38,127 bases of DNA from an uncultured Gammaproteobacteria bacterium. Its GTDB lineage: Bacteria > Patescibacteriota > Microgenomatia > Levybacterales > UBA12049. Shown here piece by piece: positions 1 to 38,127 of the stretch. The DNA lies in contig CAYYAC010000001.1 of NCBI GenBank assembly GCA_964469995.1, positions 1 through 38,127 on the forward strand. Direction: 5' to 3'. Each line of letters starts with the position of its first letter. The stretch's first letter is position 1. The position numbers and the translations under genes were made by a program. The notes beneath the pieces are model-generated. The model was not told where the DNA came from and made no database searches. It worked only from the letters and a program-made list of their open reading frames with translations.

Positions 1-1371
1 CTTTTGGGAAAACAGTTTTGGGGAAAGCTTGGAGGATTAATTTCCGCAGCATTTTATATGTATGCTCCTTATCATGCAGTTGAAATATATGTTAGGGGAG
101 ACGTTTCCGAATTTTGGGCATATGCTTTTATTCCTCTTGTTTTTTTAGGAATTTATAAAGTATTTAAAACAAAAGGAAATTTTTTCTGGGTAATAGTTTC
201 AGCTATTGGATATTCAGGAATTATTCTTTCTCATAATTTAACAGCGATGATGGTTTCTCCCTTCTTGCTTTTCATGTCTTTGGTATTTATTCTTGCTTCC
301 TATAAAAAAGGAGACAAGCATACTTTATATTCAATTATTCTTTCTCTGTTTATTGGTCTTTTGATTTCCGCTTTCTACTTTATTCCTGCACTGCGTGAGC
401 AAAGATATACAAATGTTTTGTCCCAAATAGGCGGAGGAGCAGATTTTAAAGATCATTTTGTTTGTCTTTCTCAATTGTGGCAAAGTACATGGGGATATGG
501 AGGTTCTGCTCCTGGATGTTTTGATGGAGTTTCCTTTGCTGTTGGAAAAATGCAAATAGTGTTGATAGCTTTAATACTCCTTTTGGCAAAGATACTAGTT
601 TTTACTAAAAAGATTTCAAAGAAAGATGAAAAGATTAAGCTTTTAATGTTTTCACTTTTTGGTCTTTTGATTTCTGTTTTTATTATGCTGCCAATTTCTG
701 ATTTTGTCTGGAGTAGGGTTCCACTCATGGCGTTTTTTCAATATCCATGGAGATTTTTAATGATGAGTTCTTTCTTTATTTCTATTATTGCCGGAGGAAT
801 TCTTTGGACTATTAGATGTTTTAGTAAGAATAATTTATTGAGTTACTTAGTATTTGTGATAGTTGTGATTTCTTTGTTTTTCTTTGAAGCTAAACTATTT
901 AATCCTCAGACAATATTTAACAACAGTTCAGATGTCTATACAAATCAACATATGCTTAACTGGACTACCTCGAGGATTTCAGATGAATATATGCCAAGAG
1001 ATTTTCCAAAGCCCTCAATTGAAAAAGATGTAGTAAGTAGTAGGTTTACTTTTATAAAAGAAGATGTAGTTATTCTAAGAAAGACAGAGGATACGCAAAA
1101 TATAACTCTTGATGTTAATGCAATAAACAGATCCAACATTCATTTTAATATTGCATATTTTCCAGCATGGAGATTAACATTGGACGGAAATGATATAGGT
1201 GGAATAGCTAGGAAAGGTTATGATGTAAATATAACAAAAGGGAAGCACATCATTAGTATAACTTTTGTTCAAACATCAGTTGAAAAATTTTCAGATGTGC
1301 TATCCGTGATAGGTTTAATTGTTATAATTGCTGGCACTGTGTTTTACAGAAAGAAAACCAATAATGGATAA
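1..1371 (+). CDS. Family-A polytopic membrane protein, putative GT-C-like glycosyltransferase (5'-truncated by window edge)
   Basis: The frame is open from base 1; the track start at 4 is only an in-frame TTG. The protein has many hydrophobic helices. Motifs APYHAVEIYVRGDV, ILSHN, SAFYFIPAL and YPWRFL, plus the C-terminal AYFPAW..LDG...KGKH module and final TM helix, align with the CDSs at 16652, 24868 and 29855. About 100 N-terminal residues, including the THDG loop, should lie upstream of the window. Confidence 0.8.
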   Translation, partial: LLGKQFWGKLGGLISAAFYMYAPYHAVEIYVRGDVSEFWAYAFIPLVFLGIYKVFKTKGNFFWVIVSAIGYSGIILSHNLTAMMVSPFLLFMSLVFILASYKKGDKHTLYSIILSLFIGLLISAFYFIPALREQRYTNVLSQIGGGADFKDHFVCLSQLWQSTWGYGGSAPGCFDGVSFAVGKMQIVLIALILLLAKILVFTKKISKKDEKIKLLMFSLFGLLISVFIMLPISDFVWSRVPLMAFFQYPWRFLMMSSFFISIIAGGILWTIRCFSKNNLLSYLVFVIVVISLFFFEAKLFNPQTIFNNSSDVYTNQHMLNWTTSRISDEYMPRDFPKPSIEKDVVSSRFTFIKEDVVILRKTEDTQNITLDVNAINRSNIHFNIAYFPAWRLTLDGNDIGGIARKGYDVNITKGKHIISITFVQTSVEKFSDVLSVIGLIVIIAGTVFYRKKTNNG

Positions 1372-2074
1372 AGTAGGAGAATTATCAATCTTTTTTCCTT
1401 TTTGGAATGAAGAAAAAAACATTGAAGAAGTTGTAAAAAAAGCAATTCCTGTTGCGCAAAAAGTTGCATTCAAATGGGAAATAATAATGGTTGATGATGG
1501 GTCATCGGATAAGACTCTTGATATAGCAAGAAAACTTGCTTCAGGTAATCCTAATCTAGTGGTTTTATCCGATTCCAGGAACAGAGGTTATGGAGCAGCA
1601 CTAAAAAGCGGATTTTCCGCAGCGCGTTATAAATTAGTTGTATTTAATGACGGTGATGGGCAATTTGATTTTTCGGAAGTTTCAAGGCTTATATCAAAAA
1701 TAGAAGAAGCGGATATAGTCATTGGTTTTAGAAAGAAACGTCTTGATAATTCTTTTAGGCATATGCTTATGAATTTTTTGAAAATTTGGGATTTTATACT
1801 ATTTCATCTTTATTTTAGAGATATTGACTGTGGTTTTAAACTTTTTAAAAAAGATGCACTTGATAAGATTATGCCTTTAAAGTCTGAGGGAGCCATGATA
1901 ACGACAGAGCTTCTAGCGAAAGCGAAAAAGAATAAGCTAAAAATAGAGCAAGTTGAGGTGTCACATTTTCCAAGAATTTATGGAAATCAAAGTGGGGGGA
2001 ATTTAAGAGTAATAGTACGTGCAATAAGAGAAAGTTTTATAATTTGGAAAGATATTAATTATGGAAGACGTTGA
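1364..2074 (+). CDS. GT2 glycosyltransferase, Dpm1/GtrB/ArnC-like polyprenyl-phosphate sugar synthase
   Basis: Motifs IIMVDDGSSDKT, NRGYGAALKSG, FNDGDGQFD (DxD) and IDCGFKLFKK match the GT2 Dpm1-like architecture. The ATG at 1364 overlaps the upstream stop (ATGGATAA). The track's TTG start at 1328 is less likely. Confidence 0.75.
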   Translation: MDKVGELSIFFPFWNEEKNIEEVVKKAIPVAQKVAFKWEIIMVDDGSSDKTLDIARKLASGNPNLVVLSDSRNRGYGAALKSGFSAARYKLVVFNDGDGQFDFSEVSRLISKIEEADIVIGFRKKRLDNSFRHMLMNFLKIWDFILFHLYFRDIDCGFKLFKKDALDKIMPLKSEGAMITTELLAKAKKNKLKIEQVEVSHFPRIYGNQSGGNLRVIVRAIRESFIIWKDINYGRR

Positions 2075-3515
2075 CATTGCTATCATTACAAAAAGGTCTA
2101 TAAAAGGAGTTTTTGCGCTAACTTCTAGAACATTTTTTGTACAAGTTGTTGGTTTTGTTTCAAATCTTCTGCTTACTATATTTTTATCCCCCTCTGTTTT
2201 TGGAATATTTTTTATAGTGTCTGCAGCTATTGCTTTTCTTTCCTACTTTTCAGATATAGGGCTTGCTGCGGCATTAATTCAAAAGAAAGAACAAATAACA
2301 GACGAAGAGTTAAAGACTACTTTTACAATCCAACAAACTATGGTTGTAGGTGTGTCGATAATTGCTCTTGTTCTATCTGGATATGTTGCTTCTTTTTATC
2401 ATCTGCAAGAAAATGGAGTATGGCTTTTTAGAGCGTTGGTTGTTGCATTTTTTCTGTCATCATTTAAAACAATCCCGTCTATAATACTTGAAAGGGAGCT
2501 TAGTTTTGAGAAATTGGTTATCCCTCAGATTGCAGAAACACTTTTTTTTAATGTGACCGCGGTGGTTCTGGCAATGAAAGGTTATGGAGTTGAGAGCTTT
2601 ACCATTGCTGTTCTTGCTAGGGGAATAGTAGGCGTGATATCTATTTATATAATAAGCCCGTGGAGAATGGGTTTTGCCTTTTCAAGACCAGCCGCGAAGC
2701 ACCTCTTGTCTTTTGGCATACCATTTCAGGCAAATAGCTTCTTAGCTTTAATAAAAGATGATTTATTAGTGGCTTACATTGGCAAGGTTTTACCTCTGGC
2801 TCAAGTAGGTTATATTGGTTTTGCGCAAAAATGGTCACTAACGCCTTTGAGGCTCATTATGGATAACGTTATACGTATAACTTTTCCTTCTTTTGCCAGA
2901 CTGCAGCATGATGAGAATGCCCTAGCAAAAGGAATAGAAAAATCAATATTTGCATCCTGTTTTGTCATATTTCCTGCCCTTGTGGGGCTTGTTGTTCTTT
3001 CTCCGTACTTTATTGATCTAATTCCAAAGTACAGTAAATGGGAGCCAGCTCTTTTTTCGCTAGCATTTTTCTCCTTGAATTCTGCGCTGTCTTGCGTGTC
3101 AACGCCTCTTACAAACGCGCTTAATGCAGTTGGGAAGATAAAAGTATCACTTTATCTTATGATATTCTGGACAGCGGCTACATGGATTTTAACCCCAATT
3201 GCTATTATGGTTTGGGGATTTAATGGGGTTTCTATAGTGTCTGCAATTGTTGCTTTTTCTGTGGTTGGGGTAGTTTACTTAACTAAGAAATATATTTATT
3301 TCAGTATTTTGCAAGTTACGGCTATTCCTGCCATAAGTGCAATTTTTATGGGTACAATTGTTTATTTTCTAAGTCCTCAAATTATCAAGAATTTTCCAAC
3401 TCTCATTCTTATGATAATACTCGGCATTATGATATACTTTTTTACAATGTTTACATTAGCAAGAAAACAAATAATTGATGATGTAAATTTAGTCAGAAGA
3501 AATCTGCAAAAATAA
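2061..3515 (+). CDS. MOP-superfamily (Wzx-like) polysaccharide/oligosaccharide flippase
   Basis: 484 aa with about 12-14 hydrophobic segments. The N-terminus SIKGVFALTSRTFFVQVVGFVSNLLLTIFLSPSVFGIFF and the later GIPFQANSFLALIKDDLL are typical of polysaccharide biosynthesis (Polysacc_synt) proteins. It overlaps the stop of the upstream GT2 by 14 nt. Confidence 0.75.
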   Translation: MEDVDIAIITKRSIKGVFALTSRTFFVQVVGFVSNLLLTIFLSPSVFGIFFIVSAAIAFLSYFSDIGLAAALIQKKEQITDEELKTTFTIQQTMVVGVSIIALVLSGYVASFYHLQENGVWLFRALVVAFFLSSFKTIPSIILERELSFEKLVIPQIAETLFFNVTAVVLAMKGYGVESFTIAVLARGIVGVISIYIISPWRMGFAFSRPAAKHLLSFGIPFQANSFLALIKDDLLVAYIGKVLPLAQVGYIGFAQKWSLTPLRLIMDNVIRITFPSFARLQHDENALAKGIEKSIFASCFVIFPALVGLVVLSPYFIDLIPKYSKWEPALFSLAFFSLNSALSCVSTPLTNALNAVGKIKVSLYLMIFWTAATWILTPIAIMVWGFNGVSIVSAIVAFSVVGVVYLTKKYIYFSILQVTAIPAISAIFMGTIVYFLSPQIIKNFPTLILMIILGIMIYFFTMFTLARKQIIDDVNLVRRNLQK

Positions 3516-3516: not shown

Positions 3517-4419
3517 ATGAAACTTTCCGTTGTTATTTCTGCTTATAATGCACAGGATAAAATTGAAGACTGTTTAAAATCAGTTCGTTTTGCAGACGAA
3601 ATCATCGTTATAAATAATTCTTCTCAGGATAAAACTGAAGAAATCGCAAAAAAATACACTTCCAAAGTATTTACTCGTATAAACAACTTGATGTTGAACG
3701 TAAATAAAAATTTTGGTTTTTCCAAGGCATCAGGTGAATGGATTTTAAATCTTGATGATGACGAAAGGGTAACGGCTGAACTTGAAAAAGAAATAAAAGC
3801 TACAATTAGAAATGATGATAAAAATATTCAAGGATACTATATTCCTAGGAAGAATATCATTTTTGGTAAATGGATAGAACATACAGGGTGGTACCCAGAT
3901 CCGCAGCTTCGCTTATTTAGAAAAGGAAAGGGAAAATTTGCAGAAAAACATGTGCACGAGATGATTGATATTGATGGGAAAGTTGAATATCTCAAAGAGC
4001 CAATGATTCATTTCAATTATACCTCTGTGTCTCAGTTTTTGGTTAAAATGACTAATATTTATGTCCCAAACGAAGCAGATGTTAAAATATCACAAGGCTA
4101 CAAAGTAGATTTTGCGGATTCAATTAAATTTCCACTAAGGGAGTTTTTGTCTAGATTTTTTGCACGGCAGGGGTATAAAGATGGATTCCACGGCTTAATG
4201 CTTTCTCTTCTTATGGCTTTTTATCATTTTGCCATATTTGCACTTATTTGGGAGAAGCAGGGCTTTGAGGAAATTGAAAGAGGGAATATTCTTATAAAAT
4301 CTTCAACAGAAATCAAAGATGCCGGCAAAGAAATTTCATACTGGATTAGAAATGAAAAAATAGAAAGCACAAAGAACCCCGTTAAAAAAATCCTCTATAA
4401 AACATTAATACGCAAATGA
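3517..4419 (+). CDS. GT2 glycosyltransferase, WaaE/KdtX-like subgroup with hydrophobic C-terminal tail
   Basis: Motifs MKLSVVISAYNAQDKIEDCLKSVRFADEIIVINNSSQDKT, LDDDERV (DxD), YPDPQLRLFRKG and the tail GLMLSLLMAFYHFAIFALIW. It is paralogous to the CDSs at 5329 and 26496. Confidence 0.75.
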   Translation: MKLSVVISAYNAQDKIEDCLKSVRFADEIIVINNSSQDKTEEIAKKYTSKVFTRINNLMLNVNKNFGFSKASGEWILNLDDDERVTAELEKEIKATIRNDDKNIQGYYIPRKNIIFGKWIEHTGWYPDPQLRLFRKGKGKFAEKHVHEMIDIDGKVEYLKEPMIHFNYTSVSQFLVKMTNIYVPNEADVKISQGYKVDFADSIKFPLREFLSRFFARQGYKDGFHGLMLSLLMAFYHFAIFALIWEKQGFEEIERGNILIKSSTEIKDAGKEISYWIRNEKIESTKNPVKKILYKTLIRK

Positions 4420-5336
4420 AAAGCGTCTTTGTATCTATAATCAACTTTAACGGAAAAGAAAATACCCTTTCTTGTCTTTCTCAGCTTGATAAGGTAAATA
4501 AGAATGGTCTAGACATCACTGCTATTGTAATTGATAACGCGTCTTCAGAAGAATTTGAGATTAATCAAAGTTTTTTAAAGAATATTCCGCTTGTTTTTAT
4601 AAAAAATAAAGAGAATTTAGGTTTTGCAAAAGGACACAACGTTGGGATAAATTATGCGATGTCTCACGGAGCAGATTTTGTGGTTATTCTAAATAATGAT
4701 ACCCTTCTTGATAAAGATTTTATTAGGTACTTAGTTGATGCTACTAAAACAGACCCAAAGGCAGGAATCGTTGCTCCTAAAATATATTTTGCTAAAGGAT
4801 TTGAGTACCATAAAGATAAATATAAAGAAGATGAGAAAGGGAAAGTTTTTTGGTACGTAGGGGGTCAAATGGACTGGGCCAATGTGATTGGTCATCATAG
4901 AGGAGTTGATGAGGTAGATGAAGGCCAGTATGATTCTCTTTGCGAAACTGAATATGCCAGCGGATGCTGTATGCTTTTGTCCGCAGATGTTATTAATCAG
5001 ACTAAAGGATTTGATTCCAGGTACTTCCTTTATTATGAGGACAGTGATTTGTGTCAAAGGGCAAAAGAAGCTGGATTTAAGATAATATATGCTCCAAAGG
5101 CTGTAATTTGGCATAAAAATGCAGGTTCGGTGGGAGGATCGGGATCTCCTTTGCAAGATTACTATATTACAAGGAATAGAATGTTTTTTGGAATAAAATA
5201 TGCACCTTTGCGTTCAAAAGCTGCCCTTATTAGAGAGAGCATTAGGATTTTATCAAGTGGAAGAAAATGGCAAAAAAGGGGAGTAATTGATTTCTATCTT
5301 AGAAAATTTAATAAGGGGAGTTTTAAAAATGAATAA
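4416..5336 (+). CDS. GT2 glycosyltransferase, rhamnosyltransferase-like (WbbL/RfbF-like subgroup)
   Basis: Motifs VIDNASSEE, NLGFAKGHNVG, VILNNDT, SGCCMLLSADV and YYEDSDLCQRAKEAGFKIIYAPKAVIWHK. ATGA overlap with the upstream gene. Confidence 0.75.
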   Translation: MKSVFVSIINFNGKENTLSCLSQLDKVNKNGLDITAIVIDNASSEEFEINQSFLKNIPLVFIKNKENLGFAKGHNVGINYAMSHGADFVVILNNDTLLDKDFIRYLVDATKTDPKAGIVAPKIYFAKGFEYHKDKYKEDEKGKVFWYVGGQMDWANVIGHHRGVDEVDEGQYDSLCETEYASGCCMLLSADVINQTKGFDSRYFLYYEDSDLCQRAKEAGFKIIYAPKAVIWHKNAGSVGGSGSPLQDYYITRNRMFFGIKYAPLRSKAALIRESIRILSSGRKWQKRGVIDFYLRKFNKGSFKNE

Positions 5337-6084
5337 ATTATCAGCAATTGTAATAGCAAAAAATGAAGAAAATAGAATCGCAGATTGTTTAGATTCTCTA
5401 TCTTTTTGTGATGAAATAATTGTTGTTGATAATGATTCAAAAGATAGAACTGCCGAGGTTGCTCAGAGATTGGGAGCAAAGATTGTAAAATCAAATGATG
5501 ATAATTTTTCAAATCTTCGCAATCTAGGATTAAGAAGAGCTACGTATGATTTTGTTTTTTACGTAGATGCGGATGAAAGAGTAGATAGTAATTTGAGAGA
5601 AAATATTAAGCAAGTTTTAAAAAGTGCTTCTCCTACGGATTTTTATAAGGTCTCAAGGAAGAATTTTTATTTAGGAAATAATGAATGGCCAAAAATTGAA
5701 AAAATGGAAAGGCTTTTTAGAAAAAGTCAATTAAGGGGTTGGAAAGGTGAGCTTCATGAAAGCCCACAGATAAATGGAGAATCTGAGCAACTTAATGGAT
5801 TCTTGTTGCATTATACCCACAGGAATCTTTCTGAAATGCTTAAAAAAACAATTTTATGGTCAAAAACAGAAGCAGAGCTAAGATATAATGCACGGCATCC
5901 TAAAATGACTTGGTGGAGATTTCCAAGGGTTATGATAACAACCTTTTTTGATTACTATATAAGGCAAGAGGGATATAAGATAGGGACGGCAGGTTTGGTA
6001 GAAAGTATGTACCAAGCTTTTAGTATTTTCGTGACTTACGCAAGACTATGGGAACTTCAAAATGCAAAAGATAGAAATGATTAA
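5329..6084 (+). CDS. GT2 glycosyltransferase, WaaE/KdtX-like subgroup
   Basis: Motifs MNKLSAIVIAKNEENRIADCLDSLSFCDEIIVVDNDSKDRT and VDADERV. The ATG at 5329 follows a GGGGAG Shine-Dalgarno (5315-5320) and overlaps the upstream stop (ATGAATAA). The track's TTG start at 5287 is rejected. Confidence 0.75.
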   Translation: MNKLSAIVIAKNEENRIADCLDSLSFCDEIIVVDNDSKDRTAEVAQRLGAKIVKSNDDNFSNLRNLGLRRATYDFVFYVDADERVDSNLRENIKQVLKSASPTDFYKVSRKNFYLGNNEWPKIEKMERLFRKSQLRGWKGELHESPQINGESEQLNGFLLHYTHRNLSEMLKKTILWSKTEAELRYNARHPKMTWWRFPRVMITTFFDYYIRQEGYKIGTAGLVESMYQAFSIFVTYARLWELQNAKDRND

Positions 6085-8416: not shown

Positions 8417-8618
8417 TTTTTGCAAAAGCAAATAAAAATATAATATCTGCAATTCCAAAAGTATTTACAATCATTAGTGCAAAAAGTATTACAAACCAGT
8501 TTTTTTGTTTGTATGCAGCCGATCTATAAAGGGCTAATCCTTTCCAAAAGAATGTCCAAAGTCCAATAATAAAATATCCAAGAGGAGGAACTTGCTGAAA
8601 AGTTGTATCTAGGTTCAT
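8367..8618 (-). CDS. Small two-helix membrane protein, DUF5652-like
   Basis: 83 aa from the internal ATG at 8618. The core FWKGLALYRSAAYKQKNWFVILFALMIVNTFGIADIIFLF resembles the W-K-G-x-A-L-[WY]-[KR]-x-A...WF......NT.GI...IYLF pattern I recall for DUF5652 proteins of CPR bacteria. The 126-aa long form would run into the divergent GT4 gene. The 3' end overlaps the YfhO gene's 3' end by 50 nt. Confidence 0.55.
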   Translation of the reverse strand: MNLDTTFQQVPPLGYFIIGLWTFFWKGLALYRSAAYKQKNWFVILFALMIVNTFGIADIIFLFAFAKTKMKISELEFWKKKRK

Positions 8619-11973: not shown

Positions 11974-11974
11974 T

Positions 11975-16594: not shown

Positions 16595-16611
16595 AACCTA
16601 TTTAAGTGAGC

Positions 16612-16617
16612 TATAAT
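16612..16617 (+). promoter_or_regulatory. Consensus -10 hexamer TATAAT upstream of the family-A gene at 16652
   Basis: A perfect TATAAT lies 35 nt upstream of the ATG. No convincing -35 and no TG extension. Confidence 0.2.
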
Positions 16618-16623: not shown

Positions 16624-16652
16624 ATTGTAGAGATTTCTAGTGTCTTTATCAA
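16624..16652 (-). promoter_or_regulatory. Putative promoter for the minus-strand PMT_2-like gene (-35 TTGATA, 17-nt spacer, -10 TACAAT)
   Basis: Read on the minus strand: TTGATA (16652-16647), a 17-nt spacer, then TACAAT (16629-16624), with the ATG at 16594 about 29 nt downstream. Hexamer matching only. Confidence 0.3.
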
Positions 16653-31483: not shown

Positions 31484-33089
31484 AAAATATATATTGTTGT
31501 TTTTTGTTATTCTTTTGGCATCTTTTTTAAGATTATGGCAGCTTGGTAGCGTTCCTTCTGGAGTTCATGCGGATGAGGCAAATCAGGGGTATACAGTTTT
31601 CAGTCTTTTAAAAACAGGAGTAGATCTTAGCGGAAAATTTAACGTGTTTGGCTTAACAGACACAAATACAGGAGGAACGTATCCTCCTATTTATAGCTAT
31701 GTGTTAATGCCACTGGTTAATTTTTTTGGACTTAGCATTTCCGTTGTCAGATTTCCGTCTGCAGCTTTTGGTATCATTTCTGTATTTCTTGTATTTCTTG
31801 TTTCAAGAAAATTATTTGGCTCTTATTATCTTTCTTTGATTGCAGCACTTCTTTTTGCTCTTAATCCTTGGGCGATACATATTTCAAGGCAGGCATTAGG
31901 GGAATCTATTTCTCTTTTTACCGTGCTTTCTGGGATAACATTTTTTCTGTATTCCGATAAAAACAAATATCTTCTTTTTCTGTCTTCTCTTGTGTTTGGT
32001 TTGTCGTTATATTCGTATGATGCTCCAAAGGTATTCTTGCCATTGTTTATTCCATTGCTTGTATATTTTTACTGGGATAAAATAAAAAAATTCAGAAAAG
32101 CAATATCTATATCAGCAGTCATATTTGCCATATTTTATTTGTCTATATTCTTTGGAAGCGTTTCTGATTATAAAAATGAATCCATTTTTGGTTCCGTTTC
32201 GGAAAATGTAGATATAGAAAGAACTCTGACAACTGCGCCATTGTGGGAGAGTTCAATTTTTCATAATAAATTCTCTGTTTCTCTTAAAAGACTCGAGACA
32301 AGCTATTCTACTATCTTTTCCGTAAATTGGCTTTTTGTTAATGGAAGCGGAAATCTTCAGCATTCTGTAGGAAATCATGGCGAATTTTATCTCTTTGAGC
32401 TTCCATTCTTTTTTATTGGAATGTATCTTGCTTTCAAAAAGAATACTAAGCTTGGATTTTTTCTTTTAGGCTGGATGCTTATTGGGGCTCTTCCAGGAGC
32501 AGTAACAGCAACTGGTAATTTTGTATATCGTTCAGTTCATGTACTGCCTGTTCCCATACTTTTTTCATCACTTGGAATAGTGTGGTTTGTTAAAATTTTA
32601 AGAAAAAGTAAAGACATTGTTAAATATCCAGTTGGAGCACTCTTTATTCTTTTTTCTTTAATATATGTTTGTTCTTATCTTTTTACATATTTTTTTGATT
32701 ATCCAGTTTATGCATCCGAGTATTGGGCAAAACAGCAAAATAGCGCGATACTATACGTAGAGAAAAACAAAAGTAACTATGCGAACGTTTTCGTAGATGG
32801 GGGACAGCCATGGGCGACAACTTATGCCTATTTTTATAAAGTAGACCCAACTTATTACCAGAGAGCAGTTGGAAATAAAACTATGTATAAAGGCATAGAT
32901 GTAATAAAAATTGATAATATGTATTTTGGAGATTTTAATCTAAGCGAGATTAGTACTCCCTCTGCATTTTTTCCTAAAGACTCTATGATAATTACAAATT
33001 CAACAAATTTTTCAAATCAAAAATTTATAGAATCTTTTAAAGATCCCGGAGGAGTTAGGGACATTTTTAAAGTTTTCATAGTAAGATAA
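31476..33089 (+). CDS. PMT/ArnT-like GT-C membrane glycosyltransferase, dispersed fifth plus-strand copy
   Basis: 537 aa. Motifs VHADEANQGYTVFS and LNPWAIHISRQALGES, with a polytopic core and the C-terminal soluble domain TTYAYFYKVDPTYYQ. ATGAATAA overlap upstream. Confidence 0.8.
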   Translation: MNKKYILLFFVILLASFLRLWQLGSVPSGVHADEANQGYTVFSLLKTGVDLSGKFNVFGLTDTNTGGTYPPIYSYVLMPLVNFFGLSISVVRFPSAAFGIISVFLVFLVSRKLFGSYYLSLIAALLFALNPWAIHISRQALGESISLFTVLSGITFFLYSDKNKYLLFLSSLVFGLSLYSYDAPKVFLPLFIPLLVYFYWDKIKKFRKAISISAVIFAIFYLSIFFGSVSDYKNESIFGSVSENVDIERTLTTAPLWESSIFHNKFSVSLKRLETSYSTIFSVNWLFVNGSGNLQHSVGNHGEFYLFELPFFFIGMYLAFKKNTKLGFFLLGWMLIGALPGAVTATGNFVYRSVHVLPVPILFSSLGIVWFVKILRKSKDIVKYPVGALFILFSLIYVCSYLFTYFFDYPVYASEYWAKQQNSAILYVEKNKSNYANVFVDGGQPWATTYAYFYKVDPTYYQRAVGNKTMYKGIDVIKIDNMYFGDFNLSEISTPSAFFPKDSMIITNSTNFSNQKFIESFKDPGGVRDIFKVFIVR

Positions 33090-33099: not shown

Positions 33100-34164
33100 A
33101 TGCGCATAGCAATTGACATATCTCCCCTTAAGACAGGAAATTTTTTAAAACACAGCATAAGAGGGTCTGGTTTTTATTTGGAAAATTTAAATAAATCTTT
33201 AAAGAAGTTTTTCCCAAACAATGATTATGTATTTTTTACAAACGAAGAATCTGTCCCCAATGATGTAAGTGTCGTTCATTATCCATACTTTGAGCCATTT
33301 TTTTTAACCTTACCCCTTGTGAACAAAAATAAATTCTTGGTAACTGTTCATGATTTAACCCCTTTGGTATTTCCTGAACATTTTCCTCCTGGAATTAAAG
33401 GCAAACTTAAATGGTTTCTTCAGAAACGTAAGTTAAAAAAAGCAAGTTTAATTATTACGGATTCTGAATGTTCAAAGAAGGATATTGCTAATTTTACGGG
33501 AATAAAAAAAGAAAAGATAAAAGTAATATATTTATCTGCAGGAGAAGAATTTAGACAGATTGAAGATAAAAAGAATTTGGACATTATAAAAACAAAGTAT
33601 AATCTTCCTGATAAATTTGTTTTGTATGTTGGAGATGCTACTTGGAATAAAAACCTGCCTGCACTTTTTAAAGCAATTGGTAGAGAAAATCTTCCTTTTG
33701 TTGTGGTAGGCAAAACTATCGCTGATGAATCTTTTGATAGAAAAAATCCTTGGAATAGAGATTTGACTATGATTCAGGATTTTATAAAAACTAGTAAGAA
33801 TATTTCCCCTTTGGGATTTGTTCCAACGGATGATCTTGTTTCTATATATAATTTAGCCACAGTTCTTGTCATGCCATCTTTATATGAAGGATTTGGACTG
33901 CCAATTCTGGAAGCAATGAATTGCGGCTGTCCTGTTGTTGTGTCAAAAGAAGGTTCTATAGAAGAAATAGCTGGTAGTGCAGCAGAATATGTTGATGCCA
34001 GTAGCGTAGATAGTATTGCTCGGGGCATTAAAAAAGTTTTTTTAGATTCAGATTTGCAAAAAAAATTATCAGAAAAAGGTAGAGTTCAATCTGCCAAGTT
34101 TTCTTGGGAGAAAGCTGTGAAAGAAACCATGGAATCATATGAAAAAGTGGCTCTTCTCAAATAA
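33100..34164 (+). CDS. GT4 (Glycos_transf_1) glycosyltransferase
   Basis: 354 aa. It has the EX7E motif EGFGLPILEAMNCGCPVVVS and a GT-B N-terminus MRIAIDISPL. Confidence 0.8.
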   Translation: MRIAIDISPLKTGNFLKHSIRGSGFYLENLNKSLKKFFPNNDYVFFTNEESVPNDVSVVHYPYFEPFFLTLPLVNKNKFLVTVHDLTPLVFPEHFPPGIKGKLKWFLQKRKLKKASLIITDSECSKKDIANFTGIKKEKIKVIYLSAGEEFRQIEDKKNLDIIKTKYNLPDKFVLYVGDATWNKNLPALFKAIGRENLPFVVVGKTIADESFDRKNPWNRDLTMIQDFIKTSKNISPLGFVPTDDLVSIYNLATVLVMPSLYEGFGLPILEAMNCGCPVVVSKEGSIEEIAGSAAEYVDASSVDSIARGIKKVFLDSDLQKKLSEKGRVQSAKFSWEKAVKETMESYEKVALLK

Positions 34165-35257
34165 ACAGAATTTACTATTTATTTTTAAGGTTTTTCTCCT
34201 TGCTAGAATAGTTATTTTTGTTTCTGAATTTTTTTCATATAGCATTGTTAAACATTTGGGATTTCTAGGACCTACTAGATGGGCAAATTTAGACGGAGTT
34301 CATTACCTGAATATAGCTCAATGGGGATATTCCACTTTCGAGCAGGCATTTTTTCCAATATTTCCCCTTGCTGTAAAAATCTTCGCTATTTTTACTAGAG
34401 ATTATGTCTTTTCGGGTTTTATAATTACTTACACAAGTCTTTTTATGTCACTTTTTGTTTTTTTCAAATTAGTAAATTTGGATTTTTCGAAAAATGTAGC
34501 TAAATGGAGTTTGGTGTTCTTATTGTTATTTCCTACTAGTTTTTTTCTTTTTAGTATCTATACGGAATCTTTATTTTTGTTGTTTTTGTTTTTGTCATTT
34601 TATTTTGCAAGGAAAGAAAATTTTCTAATAGCAGCTGTATTTGCAGGATTGGCTTCAGGCACTAGATTAGTTGGTATATTTATACTTCCAGCAATTCTAA
34701 TAGAGTTTTATTTATATGCAAGGGGTAAGAGAATTAATCCATTTAAGTTGATTTATGATTCTATATTTTTGAGTTTTGTATCAATGCTAGGATTTGCTTC
34801 TTATTCTTATTATCTTTGGAGCAGGTGGGCAGATCCATTGTATTTCATACATGCGTTTCCTGCGTATGGTGTAGGAAGAAGCGGAGGGCAAATAATACTT
34901 TTGCCGCAAGTAATGTTCAGATATTTTAAAATTTTTACGACAGTATCACCCCTAACTCACGATTTTTTAATTGCTGTTTTGGAGATTTCTATATTTGTTC
35001 TATTTGTTGGAGTTTTATTGGTTAATTTCAGAAAAATAAGATTGTCTTATTTTGTATTTAGTTGTTTAGCAATTTTGGGACCTACATTAACCGGAACATT
35101 ATCATCTGAGCCTAGGTATGTCTTAGCAGGTTTTCCCGTTTTTATCATTTTGGGAGGAATAGGCAATAAAAAAATTAGGATAGCCCTAGTTTTGTGTTCT
35201 ACGGCGTTGCTTTCAGTACTTGCTGCATATTTTCTTCAGGGCTATTTTATAGCGTAA
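34139..35257 (+). CDS. PIG-V-like (GT76, Mannosyl_trans2-type) GT-C membrane mannosyltransferase candidate
   Basis: 372 aa, polytopic. Motifs WANLDGVHYLNIAQWGYSTFEQAFFPIFPL, FPTSFFLFSIYTESLFLL and LASGTRLVGIF match the WDxxxYLxIAxxGY...AFFPL / YTESLF pattern I recall for this family. Confidence 0.65.
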   Translation: MKKWLFSNKQNLLFIFKVFLLARIVIFVSEFFSYSIVKHLGFLGPTRWANLDGVHYLNIAQWGYSTFEQAFFPIFPLAVKIFAIFTRDYVFSGFIITYTSLFMSLFVFFKLVNLDFSKNVAKWSLVFLLLFPTSFFLFSIYTESLFLLFLFLSFYFARKENFLIAAVFAGLASGTRLVGIFILPAILIEFYLYARGKRINPFKLIYDSIFLSFVSMLGFASYSYYLWSRWADPLYFIHAFPAYGVGRSGGQIILLPQVMFRYFKIFTTVSPLTHDFLIAVLEISIFVLFVGVLLVNFRKIRLSYFVFSCLAILGPTLTGTLSSEPRYVLAGFPVFIILGGIGNKKIRIALVLCSTALLSVLAAYFLQGYFIA

Positions 35258-35264: not shown

Positions 35265-35273
35265 TGCTATACT
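35265..35273 (+). promoter_or_regulatory. Extended -10 element TGcTATACT, 6 nt upstream of the cupin gene ATG
   Basis: TG at 35265-35266 and TATACT at 35268-35273, then aaggtt, then the ATG at 35280. This lies in the largest non-coding gap (22 nt) of the downstream 21.5 kb. Hexamer matching only. Confidence 0.3.
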
Positions 35274-35279
35274 AAGGTT

Positions 35280-35834
35280 ATGGAATTTATAACATTGGAT
35301 AATAAAGATTCTAAAACAATAATAGACGGCATTGTAATGCACCCCCTTAAGATAAATAAGGATGAATCAGGTATTCTAGTTGAAACACTAAGAAAAGACT
35401 GGCCTGTTATATACGGAGAGGGAAGGGAATTTGCAATGCAATATTATTCAGTAACGCCTCCTGGTCTTGCAAGGGACGAAGATGTGTGGCATTGCCATCC
35501 AACGGTTCAGGAAGACAGATTTATTGTTATAAGCGGGGAAATTGTCGTTGCTGTAGCAGATACTAGAGAGGGATCAAAAACAAACGGAATTTTAAACTTA
35601 TTTCACATGAAGTCAGATGAGAGTCCATATATTCTACTTATTCCAAAAAATACTTTGCATGGATTTATGGTAGTTTCTGAAACACCCGCAACTCTTTTGA
35701 ATTTTCCTACAGCGGTTTACAATCCCGCAGAAGAACTCAGGGTTGCATATGATAAGGCTCAAGTAAAAATGGAAGATGGAGCATTATTTTCCTGGGACGA
35801 AGTTAGAAAAAAAATAACGGATTTATCTTCTTAA
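35280..35834 (+). CDS. RmlC-like cupin (dTDP-4-dehydrorhamnose 3,5-epimerase family-like sugar-nucleotide epimerase/isomerase)
   Basis: 184 aa. Motifs WHCHPTVQEDRFIVISGEIVVAVADTREGSKTNG, LLIPKNTLHGF and YNPAEE follow the H.H..Q.D.f.v..G...v...D.R..S.T.G ... iP.G..HGF ... Y.p..E pattern of RmlC-type cupins. Confidence 0.65.
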   Translation: MEFITLDNKDSKTIIDGIVMHPLKINKDESGILVETLRKDWPVIYGEGREFAMQYYSVTPPGLARDEDVWHCHPTVQEDRFIVISGEIVVAVADTREGSKTNGILNLFHMKSDESPYILLIPKNTLHGFMVVSETPATLLNFPTAVYNPAEELRVAYDKAQVKMEDGALFSWDEVRKKITDLSS

Positions 35835-35835
35835 A

Positions 35836-36582
35836 ATGCGCAACATTAAATTTTTATCTCTTGTTGTGCCTGCGTATAAGCAAGAAAAGACTATTGTTAA
35901 AGATTTGGAAAATCTTGATGCGATACTGAAATCCTTACCTTTTGATTATGAAATAATTGTTGTGGTTGATGGTTTTGTTGATAAAACACTTGAGAATGCG
36001 AAGAAAATAAAAAATAACAAAATAAAAGTGCTAGGTTATGAGAAAAATCAGGGAAAAGGATATGCGGTTAAGTATGGAATGGCAAAAACTAAAGGAGACA
36101 TAGTAGGTTTTATAGATGCAGGGATGGACATTGACGCGACAGGGATAGCAATTCTTATTGACTCAATGATATGGAAAAATGCAGATATTATGGTTGGAAG
36201 CAAATTACATCCAGAGTCAAAAGTAGAGTATCCGGCAATAAGAAGAATTTTAACTTGGGGTTATAGATCTCTCACAGAGCTCATGTTTGGTTTCAGCATT
36301 AGAGATACTCAAGTCGGAGTCAAATTTTTTAGAAAAGAAGTAGCAAGGGCAGTATTTCCTAGAATAATTATAAAAGCCTTTGCTTTTGATGTTGAGGTTT
36401 TAGCTGTTGCAAGATTTTTGGGCTTTGACAGGATTTATGAGGGGCCAATAAAGCTTAATTTCAACAAGGACAGCAGCATAACTTCTTCAAATTTTTGGTA
36501 TATAATTTTTCTTATGCTTTGGGATACATTTGCTGTTTTCTATCGTCTGAAAATAACACATTTTTACAAAAGAAATAAATGA
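35836..36582 (+). CDS. GT2 glycosyltransferase, Dpm1/GtrB-like polyprenyl-phosphate sugar synthase candidate with C-terminal TM helix
   Basis: Motifs LSLVVPAYKQEKTI, IIVVVDGFVDKT, NQGKGYAVKYG, IDAGMDID, RDTQVGVKFFRK, FAFDVEVL and the hydrophobic tail FWYIIFLMLWDTFAVFY. Confidence 0.7.
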   Translation: MRNIKFLSLVVPAYKQEKTIVKDLENLDAILKSLPFDYEIIVVVDGFVDKTLENAKKIKNNKIKVLGYEKNQGKGYAVKYGMAKTKGDIVGFIDAGMDIDATGIAILIDSMIWKNADIMVGSKLHPESKVEYPAIRRILTWGYRSLTELMFGFSIRDTQVGVKFFRKEVARAVFPRIIIKAFAFDVEVLAVARFLGFDRIYEGPIKLNFNKDSSITSSNFWYIIFLMLWDTFAVFYRLKITHFYKRNK

Positions 36583-37853
36583 AAGAAAATATAATAAAAC
36601 TTGCCAAACACCCTCTTATATTTGGCAGCACAGTTATTTTTGTGGGTTCAATGGCTGCGAGCGTATTTAACTATTTATTTAATCTGGCCTTAATAAGGAC
36701 ATTACCAGTTGCTGACTATGGTACATTTTCTTCTTTAATTTCTATCTTCAATATTTTTTCTGTATTCTCAATAGTCATAATAATGATTTTTTCAAAATTT
36801 ACCGCATCTTTAGTTGGGCAAAAGAGAGAAAAAGCTATTGGTTCATTGTTTATTTCAGGAACTATTTGGGTAGGAATTATGTCATTTGCTGTTTGTGTTG
36901 TTTTAGCTCTAGGTTCTGGGGAAATAGCAGGATTTTTAAATATAAACTCTATTGGACTTATTCTACTAACAATCTTAACCTTATTTTTTTCATTTCTACT
37001 TGCCGTTACTACCGGAATACTGCAGGGACTTTTAAAATTTAATTATTTCTCTTTTATAAATATAGCATCGTCTCTTGTTAAGCTTCTGTTTGGAATGTTA
37101 TTTATATTTTTGGGGTATAGGGTTTTTGGCGCAATATCTGCATTTTTACTTTCTGCAGTACTGGGATATATATTTGCAATAATTCCTCTTTATAAATTTT
37201 TAAAACATAAAGTTGAAGACGGTTTTACATTATCTTCTTTGCATAAAAAAGCATATTCATATGCATTTCCCGTTTTGCTTTCCAATATTGGAATAACTGC
37301 ATTAATATCTGCAGATATAATTTTGGTTAAACACTATTTTAATCCTACGGTTGCAGGGCAATATGCAGCACTGTCTTTAATGGGTAGATCTATATTTTAT
37401 CTTGTTTCTCCGATTTCTTCAGTACTTTTTCCTGTTATAGCTCAAAAGAAGGAAAGAAGAGAAAAAATTATAGGAACTCTTCTTTTGTCTATCTTTCTCG
37501 TAGGTTTTCCGGCAATAATTCTAAGTGCTTTCTATTTTGCATTTCCGCAAGTTGTACTATCTGTCCTTTCTCCTGGGAAAATATATCTTCCCCTGCTTAA
37601 TCTACTTGGTCCCTTTTCTGTTTTTATAATGCTTTATGCAATGTGTTTCCTCCTTAATAGCTTCTATCTTTCATTAGGAAAGACAAATGTTTTTATATTT
37701 ACAACAATTGGAGCAGTGTTGGAGTCTATTCTAATTGTCTTGTATCATGCAAGCATAACAGAGGTTATAAATGATTTGATTGTTGCTTCATTTTTACTTC
37801 TTATTAGCCTTTTGTTATACTATCAAAATGTCGCAAAGGATTCTAATTCTTAA
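36579..37853 (+). CDS. MOP-superfamily (Wzx-like) flippase, second copy
   Basis: 424 aa with about 12 hydrophobic segments. The N-terminus FGSTVIFVGSMAASVFNYLFNLALIRTLPVADYGTFSSL is typical of oligosaccharide flippase family proteins. ATGA overlap with the upstream Dpm1-like GT2. Confidence 0.7.
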   Translation: MKENIIKLAKHPLIFGSTVIFVGSMAASVFNYLFNLALIRTLPVADYGTFSSLISIFNIFSVFSIVIIMIFSKFTASLVGQKREKAIGSLFISGTIWVGIMSFAVCVVLALGSGEIAGFLNINSIGLILLTILTLFFSFLLAVTTGILQGLLKFNYFSFINIASSLVKLLFGMLFIFLGYRVFGAISAFLLSAVLGYIFAIIPLYKFLKHKVEDGFTLSSLHKKAYSYAFPVLLSNIGITALISADIILVKHYFNPTVAGQYAALSLMGRSIFYLVSPISSVLFPVIAQKKERREKIIGTLLLSIFLVGFPAIILSAFYFAFPQVVLSVLSPGKIYLPLLNLLGPFSVFIMLYAMCFLLNSFYLSLGKTNVFIFTTIGAVLESILIVLYHASITEVINDLIVASFLLLISLLLYYQNVAKDSNS

Positions 37854-38127
37854 TTGGAGAGATATAAATAATACTAGCTCCGGAGGCGCAGAAGTTCTAA
37901 CCCATGAGATGGCAAAGAGATGGGTTAAATTAGGAAACAGCGTTACTCAATTTTCTTCTGCTTTCAAAAACTCACTAGAAAAGGAAACGATAGACGGGGT
38001 GAGAATTGTAAGAAAAGGAAATCCTGATGCTAGATATCTCCACCAATCTGTACATTTCAAAGCTTTTTTATACTATATAAAACATAGAAATGAATTCGAC
38101 ATTGTATTAGATGAAATACATGGGCTT
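37828..38127 (+). CDS. GT4 glycosyltransferase, N-terminal 100 codons (3'-truncated by window edge)
   Basis: My own translation from the ATG at 37828 is MSQRILILNWRDINNTSSGGAEVLTHEMAKRWVKLGNSVTQFSS...DIVLDEIHGL, with no stop up to the window end. The ILxLNWRD...GGAE....E.AKRWV..G..VT N-terminus is typical of GT-B/GT4 enzymes. It is absent from the ORF track because it has no stop codon. Confidence 0.65.
   Translation, partial: MSQRILILNWRDINNTSSGGAEVLTHEMAKRWVKLGNSVTQFSSAFKNSLEKETIDGVRIVRKGNPDARYLHQSVHFKAFLYYIKHRNEFDIVLDEIHGL

Follow-up and report, generated by a model that had tools for sequence, protein, structure and literature searches.

We examined a 38,127-nt window, the whole of contig CAYYAC010000001.1, from an uncultured, ultra-small bacterium of the Microgenomates (CPR/Patescibacteria). 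The contig is probably the middle section of an envelope-glycosylation supercluster conserved in Microgenomates, a multi-step outer-face system that would be fed by polyprenyl-phosphate sugars. This reading draws on the protein families and folds assigned, on conserved motifs and gene order, on ancient paralogy, and on the lack of priming phosphoglycosyltransferase (PGT), Wzy, Wzz, and ABC exporter genes nearby. An earlier note on this DNA had proposed such step-by-step glycan assembly on the outer face; its testable parts held, while the product and acceptor are inferred. Its gene counts were all reproduced by Pfam and similarity searches: 32 genes, of which 26 encode sugar-transferring enzymes (GTs), namely eight GT2, three GT4, and 15 polytopic GT-C candidates. 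The other genes encode two Wzx-like MOP flippases, GalE, an RmlC-like cupin, the secreted protein g22, and a DUF5652 protein.

The window is probably mostly one transcription unit (coordinates below are on the plus strand unless noted). Of its 30 gene junctions, 26 are either overlaps or gaps of ≤2 bp. GC content stays even along the contig, and only one 2-kb window lacks a positive GC skew. The contig ends cut g01 (5′ end) and g31 (3′ end). The sole large gap contains, in antisense, a gene for a small DUF5652 membrane protein (8367..8618, minus strand; PF18893, 58.7 bits), which is placed likewise in the relatives' loci L043, L045, L068, and L081. The 184-aa protein g22 (28192..28746) is secreted or membrane-anchored and without functional assignment, with zero matches in Pfam and NCBIfam searches. 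Its orthologs in relatives directly adjoin an MptA/B-like gene in 15 of 18 cases, mostly right after GalE.

Pfam scores place 12 of the 15 GT-C candidates above threshold: six as PMT_2, two as YfhO plus the truncated g01, and three as PTPS_related. The genes above the PMT_2 gathering score are g13 (14843..16594, minus strand; PF13231, 37.6 bits), g15 (18277..19944; PMT_2 34.4, GtrII PF14264 31.6, and PMT 25.7 bits, each above cutoff), g16 (19937..21577; PMT_2 50.6 and PMT 49.7 bits), g17 (21579..23243; 41.6 bits), g18 (23240..24880; 33.2 bits), and g25 (31476..33089; 31.0 bits). The only minus-strand GT is g13, and its inverted orientation is kept in relatives. The YfhO-family genes g07 (6062..8416; PF09586, 83.9 bits) and g09 (9739..11973; 76.5 bits) share 33% identity. 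We use "family A" for the PF10131 (PTPS_related) genes g14 (16640..18280; 56.8 bits), g19 (24868..26514; 31.9 bits, with a YfhO C-terminal region at 30.3 bits), and g24 (29855..31483; 65.9 bits), plus g01 (1..1371; PTPS_related/YfhO-like) by similarity. The truncated g01 passes the YfhO model (PF09586, 34.7 bits; cutoff 28.5) and is 28-30% identical to g14, g19, and g24 (E 1e-40 to 1e-48).

The remaining three candidates, g12, g23, and g27, stay below Pfam thresholds with their own sequences and were placed through their homologs. The GT87-like g12 (13620..14846) scores 21.3 bits against GT87, under the cutoff of 25, and 11 of 19 of its orthologs match GT87 (best E 6.8e-10). The MptA/B- or GT87-like g23 (28743..29879) matches TIGR03459 (MptA) at E 5e-8, below cutoff; five of 25 orthologs match GT87 and an ortholog bears PF26314 (MptA_B_family). 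Profile-profile alignment (hhalign) links the g23 family to the g12 family (probability 96%, E 2e-9) and to the g27 family (probability 89%). The PIG-V/GPI-mannosyltransferase-like g27 (34139..35257) has many homologs in which PF04188 is present.

Structure models (AF2) of two of the 15 candidates, g14 and g27 (pLDDT 92.8 and 92.2), point to the same fold. The best 21 Foldseek matches of g14 are all solved GT-C enzymes, and the best 37 matches of g27 are all GT-C-fold proteins, nearly all of them glycosyltransferases (best TM-scores: GPI-MT-I 9WNO, 0.57/0.53; ArnT, 0.54). Matches to the two models include STT3/PglB/AglB, AftA/AftD, ArnT, PimE, ALG9/ALG3, GPI-MT-I, and Pmt. An MFS-type transporter fold was rejected for both (Foldseek probability <0.1). 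We thus interpret the polytopic ORFs as predicted GT-C enzymes and not transporters, as the earlier note had it, from Pfam (12 genes), AF2/Foldseek (family A and g27), and profile-profile links (g12 and g23).

The acidic motifs that had been reported from the first external loop were all present at the positions given, and their acidic residues are invariant in the orthologs checked (those of g12, g14, g23, and g27). All six PMT_2 genes carry a DE motif just past TM1, at residues 33-41 (residue 41 in g13). THDG occurs at residues 30-35 in g14, g19, and g24 (residue 35 in g14), and g14 D37 is invariant in 42 ortholog sequences. The YfhO-family pair g07 and g09 has PDV/TDP followed by WNPY.FAGTPLLAN, with PDV and WNPYSFAGTPLLAN in g07. 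A D...NPY motif is found in g12 and g23, where D95 and D100, respectively, are invariant among orthologs. In g27, LDGVHY lies at residue 51, and D52-G53 is invariant in 38 ortholog sequences.

Three short GT2 genes are candidate polyprenyl-phosphate sugar synthases, and the earlier identification of three Dpm1-like donor synthases agrees with their best-ranking relatives, GtrB, archaeal DPMS, ArnC, PpgS, and AglJ. The Dpm1/GtrB/ArnC-like g02 (1328..2074; PF00535, 97 bits) has PgfS, ArnC, and AglJ as top NCBIfam matches, PgfS first and each below cutoff. The Dpm1/GtrB-like g11 (12907..13617; PF00535, 122 bits) has GtrB 5EKP, archaeal DPMS 5MLZ, and ArnC 9HWJ as top solved relatives, and AglJ and PpgS as best NCBIfam matches, below cutoff. 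For the Dpm1/PpgS-like g29 (35836..36582; PF00535, 63 bits), the PpgS match covers nearly the whole model, also below cutoff. The earlier count of three donor synthases against fifteen GT-C candidates holds for the window. In relatives, a bigger cluster contains at least 20 GT-C genes, and a fourth Dpm1-like GT2 is present.

The other GT2 genes are g04 (3517..4419; PF00535, 80 bits), which groups with g06 (5287..6084; PF00535, 68 bits) and g20 (26496..27251; PF00535, 81 bits; 36% identity to g04), and g05 (4416..5336; Glyco_tranf_2_3 and PF00535), which groups with g10 (11957..12910; PF00535, 92.8 bits). The GT4 genes are g08 (8684..9742; Glycos_transf_1, 65.8 bits), g26 (33100..34164; Glycos_transf_1, 100.7 bits), and g31 (37828..38127; Glyco_transf_4, 30.5 bits, cutoff 28.5), an N-terminal part truncated at its 3′ end, whose ortholog in relative L002 is full length. 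The MOP flippases are the Wzx-like g03 (2061..3515; Polysacc_synt_3, 173 bits; 12 hydrophobic segments) and g30 (36579..37853; Polysacc_synt, 55 bits). A GtrA-type flippase for polyprenyl-P-monosaccharides is missing. Sugar-nucleotide genes are represented by the UDP-glucose 4-epimerase GalE (g21, 27248..28222; TIGR01179, 414 bits, cutoff 262), the sole gene to reach an NCBIfam equivalog cutoff, and by the RmlC-like cupin g28 (35280..35834; dTDP_sugar_isom, 51 bits; TIGR01221 below cutoff), a predicted sugar-nucleotide epimerase/isomerase.

With donor synthases beside PMT-like enzymes, the cluster could serve mainly protein O-glycosylation, a reading that we consider unlikely. Each of the PMT_2/PMT-like paralogs, perhaps joined by family A and YfhO, would use polyprenyl-phosphate donors from the Dpm1-like GT2s and modify Ser/Thr of different secreted or surface proteins (e.g., pilins, S-layer, adhesins), as in actinobacterial Ppm1-Pmt and S. 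mutans PgfS-PgfM1-PgfE-PgfM2. In its favor, all six PMT_2 genes have the PMT-type DE motif in their first loop, and g15 and g16 also pass the PF02366 (PMT) threshold. In addition, the order g20-g21-g23/g24 (GT2/GalE/GT-C) recalls the pgf operon, as does the PgfS match of g02, and a pathway that requires no PGT is consistent with none being found. However, GT87, MptA/B, PIG-V-like families, and YfhO have, to our knowledge, glycolipid or teichoic-acid acceptors in every characterised case. Nor would single-sugar O-glycosylation require the two Wzx-like flippases or eight GT2/GT4 enzymes in the cytoplasm. Furthermore, family A carries a C-terminal beta-sandwich of a type seen attached to glycoside hydrolases, which hints at a glycan acceptor, and the cluster encodes no candidate target protein.

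The flippases raise another alternative. Wzx-type flippases usually carry undecaprenyl-PP-oligosaccharides, which need a PGT. The pathway could be a conventional Wzx/Wzy-type or en-bloc transfer system with its PGT, polymerase, and ligase elsewhere, in which the GT-C enzymes would add side branches after export, much like Gtr-type O-antigen modification. Consistent with this are the best NCBIfam matches of g03 (WzxC-type MOP, O-glycosylation Wzx, and TuaB, all below cutoff), the 11 Leloir-type GT2/GT4 enzymes, the sugar-nucleotide genes inside and alongside the cluster, the GtrII threshold passed by g15, and the fact that the window's own genome is seen through this one contig.

Like the earlier note, we see no PGT, Wzy, Wzz, or ABC exporter component in the window, and none turned up in the neighbourhoods scanned in relatives or at the edges reached. 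A crude search by motif, usable for PGT and ABC genes but not for Wzy and Wzz, gave zero MraY/WecA, Bac_transf, or Walker-A/ABC signatures in 1.53 Mb (the window and L001-L085). The recurrent unlabelled ORFs of relatives include no PGT, Wzy, Wzz, LCP, or ABC family by Pfam; they add further PMT_2 genes, methyltransferases, and sugar-nucleotide enzymes. Because the window is a complete contig, the flanks were examined via syntenic relatives. Neither cluster edge reached there has a PGT, Wzy, Wzz, or ABC gene: the left edge borders on unrelated housekeeping genes that differ from genome to genome (judged by eye from their N-terminal sequences, they resemble Lon protease, a TraG-like ATPase, and an MFS transporter), and on the right the cluster passes into sugar-nucleotide enzymes. 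There are also more GT-C genes than Leloir GTs (15 vs. 11), and no part of the cluster is better conserved, the opposite of a decoration module. One of several polytopic proteins without Pfam matches in relatives could hide a polymerase; altogether, we regard the conventional pathway as quite improbable.

Dozens of Microgenomates MAGs share this gene order, spanning Levy-, Roizman-, Gottesman-, Shapiro-, and Woesebacteria. In these relatives, the cluster extends ~7 genes further left and ~8 further right, to at least 62 kb in genomes of ~1 Mb. The independent assembly L085 is collinear gene by gene over g07-g21 (50-78% protein identity), which rules out an assembly artefact. We found no characterised organism with the same gene order, and no description of such a cluster in the literature searched.

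Relatives have between ~3 and 7 PMT_2 genes in the tandem array, and some clusters hold lineage-specific inserted genes, as would fit a hypervariable surface-antigen island with recent tandem GT-C duplication and fast turnover against phages or hosts. This is very improbable, since the pattern of orthology already largely refutes it: in several phylum-level lineages, a reciprocal-best ortholog with 40-78% identity occupies the matching position for most genes, whereas paralogs are only 20-39% identical to each other. Composition is also uniform, and no mobile-element genes are found among the window's genes. Given this difference in identity, the paralogs are old, individually retained, and non-redundant, as expected if they catalyze distinct enzymatic steps.

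Our preferred reading is the outer-face system, for which we infer donor chemistry, topology of action, step order, and the identity of acceptor and product. On the cytoplasmic face, GalE and the RmlC-like enzyme would diversify nucleotide sugars, g02, g11, and g29 would load single sugars onto polyprenyl phosphate, and the five other GT2 and three GT4 enzymes would make a lipid-linked or glycolipid intermediate. The two Wzx-like MOP flippases would carry lipid-linked species across the membrane; since both are Wzx homologues, the intermediate may be a lipid-linked oligosaccharide primed by a PGT encoded elsewhere. On the outer face, the 15 GT-C enzymes of five families would each add one sugar or linkage from polyprenyl-phosphate donors, working through the conserved acidic residue of the first external loop. 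The acceptor would belong to the envelope; a heteroglycan anchored to a lipid or linked to the wall is most likely, and surface proteins may be additional acceptors. The genes may make one shared product or belong to several independent glycosylation systems.

We know of no cultured member of this lineage. The cluster is a conserved hallmark of Microgenomates, not a one-off, and because it is conserved across many related lineages, these tiny genomes devote ~5% of their DNA to a predicted surface-glycan cluster.

The gene counts of the earlier note were reproduced by Pfam: eight GT2, three GT4, two MOP flippase, six PMT_2, and two YfhO genes, three PF10131 genes (family A) plus the truncated paralog g01, the GT87-like pair g12 and g23, and one PIG-V-like gene (g27). 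The third GT4 gene (37828-38127) comprises only the N-terminal 100 residues. The six non-GT genes are GalE (TIGR01179, 414 bits), an RmlC-like cupin, the secreted 184-aa protein g22, a DUF5652 protein, and the two MOP flippases.

The earlier note had read all 15 polytopic proteins as GT-C glycosyltransferases rather than transporters or proteins of another fold, and this reading agrees with Pfam (12 proteins), structural models (g14 and g27), and profile links (g12 and g23). Each candidate has 8-12 hydrophobic segments in a hydropathy scan, i.e., eight or more TM segments. The 12 that pass curated Pfam thresholds of GT-C families include six PMT_2 proteins (PF13231; CAZy GT39/GT83-type; g13, g15, g16, g17, g18, and g25), which score 31.0-50.6 bits against a cutoff of 26.1 and carry DE at residues 33-41; g15 is also above the GtrII threshold. 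YfhO (PF09586, cutoff 28.5) is matched by g07 (83.9 bits), g09 (76.5 bits), and g01 (34.7 bits), and PTPS_related (PF10131, cutoff 26.4) by the family A proteins g14 (56.8 bits), g19 (31.9 bits), and g24 (65.9 bits), with g01 included in family A by paralogy. The first-loop acidic motif was located in 14 of the 15 candidates, all but g01, which lacks its N-terminus. The motifs that the earlier note quoted lie where it placed them, and their acidic residues are invariant in ortholog alignments (A2-A5). The position of the loop after the first TM helix, together with the models, suggests that it faces outward.

The assignment of g12, g23, and g27 draws on more than their own Pfam scores. GT87 (PF09594; PimE-type) matches g12 at 21.3 bits, under the cutoff of 25, and does not match g23; among their orthologs, it is matched at E <= 0.01 by 11 of 19 for g12 and by 5 of 25 for g23. 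In TIGR03459, g23 scores 32 bits, far under the cutoff of 439, and its Roizmanbacteria ortholog has a precomputed match to PF26314 (MptA_B_family), a family that does not appear among the matches from the Pfam copy used. Profile comparison shows homology between the g12 and g23 families (hhalign 96%, E 2e-9), and a probable relation between the g23 and g27 families (hhalign 89%). The g27 protein has no Pfam match at E <= 0.01 and does not reach the threshold of PF04188 (Mannosyl_trans2/PIG-V, GT76); precomputed PF04188 matches are present on ~40 of its 120 closest homologs. It appears to resemble a PIG-V member, although its own score stays under the PF04188 threshold.

PDB sequence searches were uninformative (nothing meaningful with profiles of family A and the g12, g23, and g27 families, and nothing found with g16 or g07 singly), so g14 and g27 were modeled and compared by fold. 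The AF2 model of g14 (pLDDT 92.8, pTM 0.93) consists of a helical membrane core, a C-terminal beta-sandwich, and a last TM helix, and its top 21 Foldseek matches in the PDB are all solved GT-C enzymes (STT3, AftA, AftD, AglB, PglB, and Pmt4). For the g27 model (pLDDT 92.2), the top 37 are all GT-C-fold proteins and nearly all glycosyltransferases; GPI mannosyltransferase I (0.57/0.53) and ArnT (0.54) lead by TM-score, ahead of PglB, ALG9, PimE, and Emb. The top matches of the two models have TM-scores of 0.45-0.57, and MFS-type transporters appear at probability <0.1. This fold comparison covers g14 and g27, and the other 13 candidates are assigned by Pfam or profile homology. NCBI names the family A proteins (16640-18280, 24868-26514, and 29855-31483; homologs P0159, P0176, P0203, and P0207) "6-pyruvoyl-tetrahydropterin synthase-related protein." This name is misleading: as modeled, family A has a GT-C fold with a C-terminal beta-sandwich, which resembles those attached to glycoside hydrolases.

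GT-C enzymes take polyprenyl-phosphate sugars as donors and work on the extracytoplasmic face. By analogy with these established families, the 15 candidates would use polyprenyl-phosphate donors on the outer face of the membrane. Such donors are synthesized by Dpm1/GtrB/PpgS-type GT2s, and three short GT2 proteins in the window are candidates of this type. The closest solved relatives of g11 in the PDB are polyprenyl-phosphate glycosyltransferases, with GtrB at the top, then archaeal DPMS and ArnC. In NCBIfam, g02 and g29 match PgfS, ArnC, AglJ, and PpgS best, across the catalytic domain, at scores far under the equivalog cutoffs for polyprenyl-phosphate glycosyltransferases (e.g., 120 vs 325 for AglJ and 75 vs 370 for PpgS); GalE is the only window protein that reaches an NCBIfam equivalog cutoff. 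The other GT2 and GT4 enzymes gave generic matches only. A PimA/PimB-like identity of the GT4s, which would favor a PI-anchored lipoglycan, was considered and dropped, as only generic GT4 matches were seen. Both flippases, g03 and g30, are Wzx-type MOP proteins with matches to Polysacc_synt and Polysacc_synt_3, and the best matches of g03 are a WzxC-type MOP, an O-glycosylation Wzx, and TuaB. No small flippase of the GtrA family (PF04138) was matched in the window, where the only small membrane protein is the DUF5652 protein.

The genes are tightly packed. The plus strand carries 29 full or end-truncated genes plus a truncated gene at the right end, and the minus strand carries g13 and a small antisense gene in the sole sizeable gap. 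When the longest ORF is taken for each gene, neighbors overlap or are at most 2 bp apart at 26 of 30 junctions. GC content is low and even (0.29-0.35) across the 38,127 bp, and GC skew is positive in every 2-kb window except one. Scans of the window for tRNA and Rfam features found none, and promoter and terminator scans gave counts at the level of shuffled sequence, which makes them uninformative on operon structure.

Three genes stand out within this layout. The only glycosyltransferase gene on the minus strand is g13 (14843-16594, minus), and relatives have it inverted as well. Convergent with g12 (4-bp overlap), it is divergent from g14 across a 45-bp spacer; the spacer region holds one promoter-like match per direction (16588-16617 on the plus strand and 16652-16624 on the minus strand), with promoter-like counts overall at chance level. 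The antisense DUF5652 gene (PF18893, 58.7 bits; 8367-8618, minus) occupies the cluster's one large intergenic gap, and its position and orientation are kept in four relatives (loci L043, L045, L068, and L081). The third, g22 (28192-28746, plus), encodes 184 aa with an N-terminal hydrophobic segment and has no Pfam or NCBIfam match. Its ortholog directly adjoins the MptA/B-like GT-C gene in 15 of the 18 relatives that have one, usually just after GalE, and g22 may be an accessory factor.

The closest homologs of the window proteins, at 50-64% identity, come from Candidatus Roizmanbacteria, Levybacteria, and other Microgenomates (Patescibacteria group). Alignment of family A against GTDB species representatives gave 586 relatives, and the loci of the best 80 of these are almost all from Microgenomates-type MAGs. 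With the ORFs of relatives labeled by the window's own proteins, the same order recurs in many lineages. On the left, it runs GT2dpm (the Dpm1-like GT2), MptAB, PMT2, A, YfhO, PMT2, A, A (g01), GT2dpm (g02), MOP, GT2, GT2, (A), YfhO, GT2, and (DUF5652, reversed). It continues in the middle with GT4, YfhO, GT2, GT2dpm (g11), GT87, PMT2 (reversed), A, a variable number of PMT2, A, GT2, and GalE, and on the right with g22, MptAB, A, (PMT2), GT4, PIG-V, MOP, RmlC, GT2dpm, GT4, and beyond. A Logan contig assembled independently (L085) follows g07-g21 gene for gene, at 50-78% identity, and such collinear independent assemblies rule out that the cluster is an assembly artefact or chimera. A GalE exactly like g21 was found on one other contig only, a 1.9-kb Logan contig (L001, SRR9179563), where it lies between partial ORFs matching g20 and g22; this indicates the same or a near-identical organism in that sample. 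The Microgenomates-type cluster also occurs in dozens of GTDB records (L006, L010, L013, L014, L016, and others) under titles of the form [quoted passage not shown], which look like placeholder or wrong taxonomic labels.

Reciprocal best hits identified a positional ortholog for most window genes in the Levy-, Roizman-, Shapiro-, and Gottesmanbacteria loci that cover the position. Ortholog identity is mostly 40-70%, compared to 20-39% between paralogs; the paralogs are thus ancient, and each has been retained. This pattern largely rules out an island of recent duplication or antigenic variation. Loci of at least 15 kb have a median of 7 GT-C genes per ~21.5 kb, a density biased upward because loci were chosen for holding one GT-C gene. 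A second conserved pair of family A and YfhO genes occurs outside the supercluster, amid unrelated genes, in some Levybacteria-type genomes (L011, L027, L047, L060, L062, L063, and L082).

The window is the whole NCBI contig of 38,127 bp and ends inside a gene on either side; none of the exact-protein look-ups (g02, g30, and g27) led to a longer contig. In relatives, the left edge of the cluster lies ~7 genes beyond the start of the window and has a fourth Dpm1-like GT2. Next to this edge are housekeeping genes that vary from genome to genome and whose N-terminal sequences, by eye, resemble Lon protease, a TraG-like ATPase, an MFS transporter, and HlyD. On the right, the cluster goes on with a GT4, a GT2, an epimerase, a HAD phosphatase, and two nucleotidyltransferases. 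Three loci (L113, L166, and L002) of Roizmanbacteria RIFCSPHIGHO2_12_FULL_33_9 jointly contain 20 or more GT-C genes and span 62 kb or more; both numbers are lower bounds, as L113 and L166 do not overlap and one gap is unbridged. A complete Gottesmanbacteria chromosome with the cluster is 995 kb, so the cluster takes up roughly 5% of such a genome. Clusters of relatives also have extra genes for an inositol-monophosphatase-family protein, for SAM methyltransferases (which form a 15-member cluster), and for UDP-GlcNAc 2-epimerase and UDP-glucose dehydrogenase, as well as several 420-660-aa proteins without a Pfam match, some of them polytopic. Inserted genes lie at 3874-4683 in L002, 13867-14676 in L077, 16372-17490 in L026, 12519-13871 in L084, and 5891-7603 and 16694-17965 in L166. 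One of the 420-660-aa proteins could hide a polymerase or another GT-C family.

The earlier note also held that the locus lacks the parts of a classical polysaccharide pathway, and that such parts just outside the window, or the same gene order in a characterized organism, would point to an ordinary product. In the window, there is no Pfam match to a priming phosphoglycosyltransferase (PGT; PF00953, PF02397) or to an ABC family of a Wzm/Wzt-type exporter. Six-frame translations of the window and the loci L001-L085 (1.53 Mb) contain zero MraY/WecA, Bac_transf, or Walker-A motifs (GxxGxGK[ST][ST], in ORFs of 120 aa or more), the last of which bears on the ABC exporter. Pfam searches of recurrent unlabeled ORFs in relatives returned more PMT_2, methyltransferases, a GT4, UDP-GlcNAc 2-epimerase, and UDP-glucose dehydrogenase; PGT, Wzy, Wzz/PCP, and ABC families were found neither in the window nor among these recurrent neighbors, several of which are polytopic and without a Pfam match. 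A PGT is likewise absent at both cluster edges reached in relatives. The claim therefore stands for the window (Pfam) and for syntenic relatives (motif scan for PGT and ABC, Pfam on recurrent neighbors). As far as synteny shows, there is no PGT/Wzy/Wzz set just outside, and no characterized organism with identical gene order was found. Wzx/Wzy O-antigen and capsule loci share with the cluster Wzx-like MOP flippases, several GT2 and GT4 genes, and sugar-nucleotide genes in one locus, but here GT-C genes dominate, and PGT, Wzy, Wzz/PCP, and ligase were not found in the window or syntenic relatives.

The closest known systems share logic and several families with the cluster. In the mycobacterial LM/LAM and arabinogalactan network (PimE, MptA/B/C, EmbA-C, AftA-D; Ppm1, PpgS-Rv3779), many GT-C enzymes of several families lengthen a glycan anchored to a lipid or the wall, on the outer face and with polyprenyl-phosphate sugars from Dpm1-like GT2s, as the cluster may do. 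The candidate GT87- and MptA/B-like families would be common to both, PpgS shows that a Dpm1-like GT2 can be short and soluble, and AftA, AftD, EmbA-C, and PimE are among the structural matches of g14 or g27. However, in mycobacteria the genes lie dispersed across 4.4 Mb of genome, while here 15 to 20 or more lie in one co-directional cluster in a ~1-Mb genome; YfhO and PF10131 are prominent, the GT4s carry no PimA/PimB-specific signal, and g12 and g23 are under Pfam/NCBIfam cutoffs. In the three-component systems CsbB/GtlA + GtcA + YfhO/GtlB (Firmicutes) and GtrB-GtrA-GtrC (enterobacteria), a GtrB/Dpm1-like GT2 makes a C55-P-sugar and a GT-C enzyme transfers it outside. The YfhO proteins g07 and g09, g15 (over the GtrII threshold), and g11 (GtrB as top solved relative) recall these systems. 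They use one GT2, one small GtrA flippase, and one GT-C to decorate a polymer made elsewhere, whereas here there are Wzx-like flippases instead of a GtrA homologue and ~5 GT-C genes per donor synthase. The ER-lumen enzymes ALG3/9/12, ALG6/8/10, and PIG-M/V/B/Z follow a logic that the cluster would share, i.e., cytoplasmic steps, a flip, and a GT-C series using Dol-P-sugars. The g27 model is nearest to GPI mannosyltransferase I by TM-score and also matches ALG9 and ALG3, and homologs of g27 carry PF04188. Unlike the ER-lumen genes, those here are bacterial, clustered, and operon-like, and g27 is under the PF04188 threshold. Overall, the cluster differs from known systems in the number and clustering of GT-C genes in a ~1-Mb genome, the prominence of PF10131 and YfhO, the use of Wzx-like rather than GtrA-type flippases, and the absence of a linked PGT.

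The locus probably works as follows. GalE and the RmlC-like enzyme would diversify nucleotide sugars, and g02, g11, and g29 would load sugars onto polyprenyl phosphate. The remaining GT2 and GT4 enzymes would build a lipid-linked or glycolipid core for the MOP proteins to flip. Its elaboration outside the membrane would follow, by the 15 GT-C enzymes of the window or the 20 or more of the full cluster. The run of GT-C genes after each Dpm1-like gene suggests donor-specific modules. Stepwise outer-face glycan assembly, as the earlier note proposed, is supported as far as computation allows, by the families, folds, loop acids, packing, synteny, and old paralogy, and by the lack of a nearby PGT, polymerase, or exporter.

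Characterized GT87, MptA/B, PIG-V, and YfhO members act on glycolipids or lipid-anchored polymers. On this analogy, and given the family A beta-sandwich, we favor a lipid- or wall-anchored heteroglycan as the product. Protein O-glycosylation is a serious alternative or additional role, for which the PMT-type DE motif speaks. Features in common with eukaryotic PMT1-7, actinobacterial Ppm1-Pmt, and the Streptococcus mutans Pgf system are PMT_2/PMT domains bearing the loop-1 DE, a Dpm1-like GT2, and a GalE-type epimerase in one locus. However, the paralogs number six here, against one or two there, MIR domains are absent, and the candidate GT-C families beyond PMT are not known to act on proteins. 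The oligosaccharyltransferase (STT3/PglB) sequence family was not detected here.

What the CPR cell envelope is made of is an acknowledged gap in knowledge. Extracytoplasmic glycosylation by polyprenyl-phosphate donors and GT-C enzymes is already known; what is notable here is its scale, clustering, and conservation across a large uncultured lineage. Kantor 2013 (PMC3812714) mentions only "abundant glycosyltransferases" in CPR, and Castelle 2017 likewise mentions only their abundance; Tian 2020 (PMC7137472) reports other glycan-biosynthesis genes as almost missing in Patescibacteria, and Méheust 2019 gives Microgenomates-enriched membrane families as hypothetical. Our literature search found no paper linking CPR/Patescibacteria with GT39, GT83, GT87, YfhO, or a GT-C cluster. 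A superphylum-level group with ~1-Mb genomes keeps a ~40-60-kb cluster composed mostly of outer-face GT-C candidates, with its paralogs individually conserved. For work on the surface glycan of uncultured Microgenomates, this is a concrete set of genes that can be tested; it is also a compact natural collection of co-evolved donor-synthase/GT-C pairs for biochemistry, and the model of g14 would replace the pterin-synthase annotation of family A with that of GT-C glycosyltransferases.

A bolder proposal, which we regard as tentative and rather unlikely, is that the cluster makes one lineage-defining envelope glycoconjugate of Microgenomates (e.g., a lipoglycan on a scavenged membrane lipid) by a single clustered line of at least 20 GT-C enzymes, in modules each starting with a Dpm1-like donor synthase. 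It would be a bacterial counterpart of ER-lumen glycan assembly without phosphoglycosyltransferase, polymerase, or exporter. If so, this glycoconjugate could be central to envelope formation or host contact of these ultra-small episymbionts.
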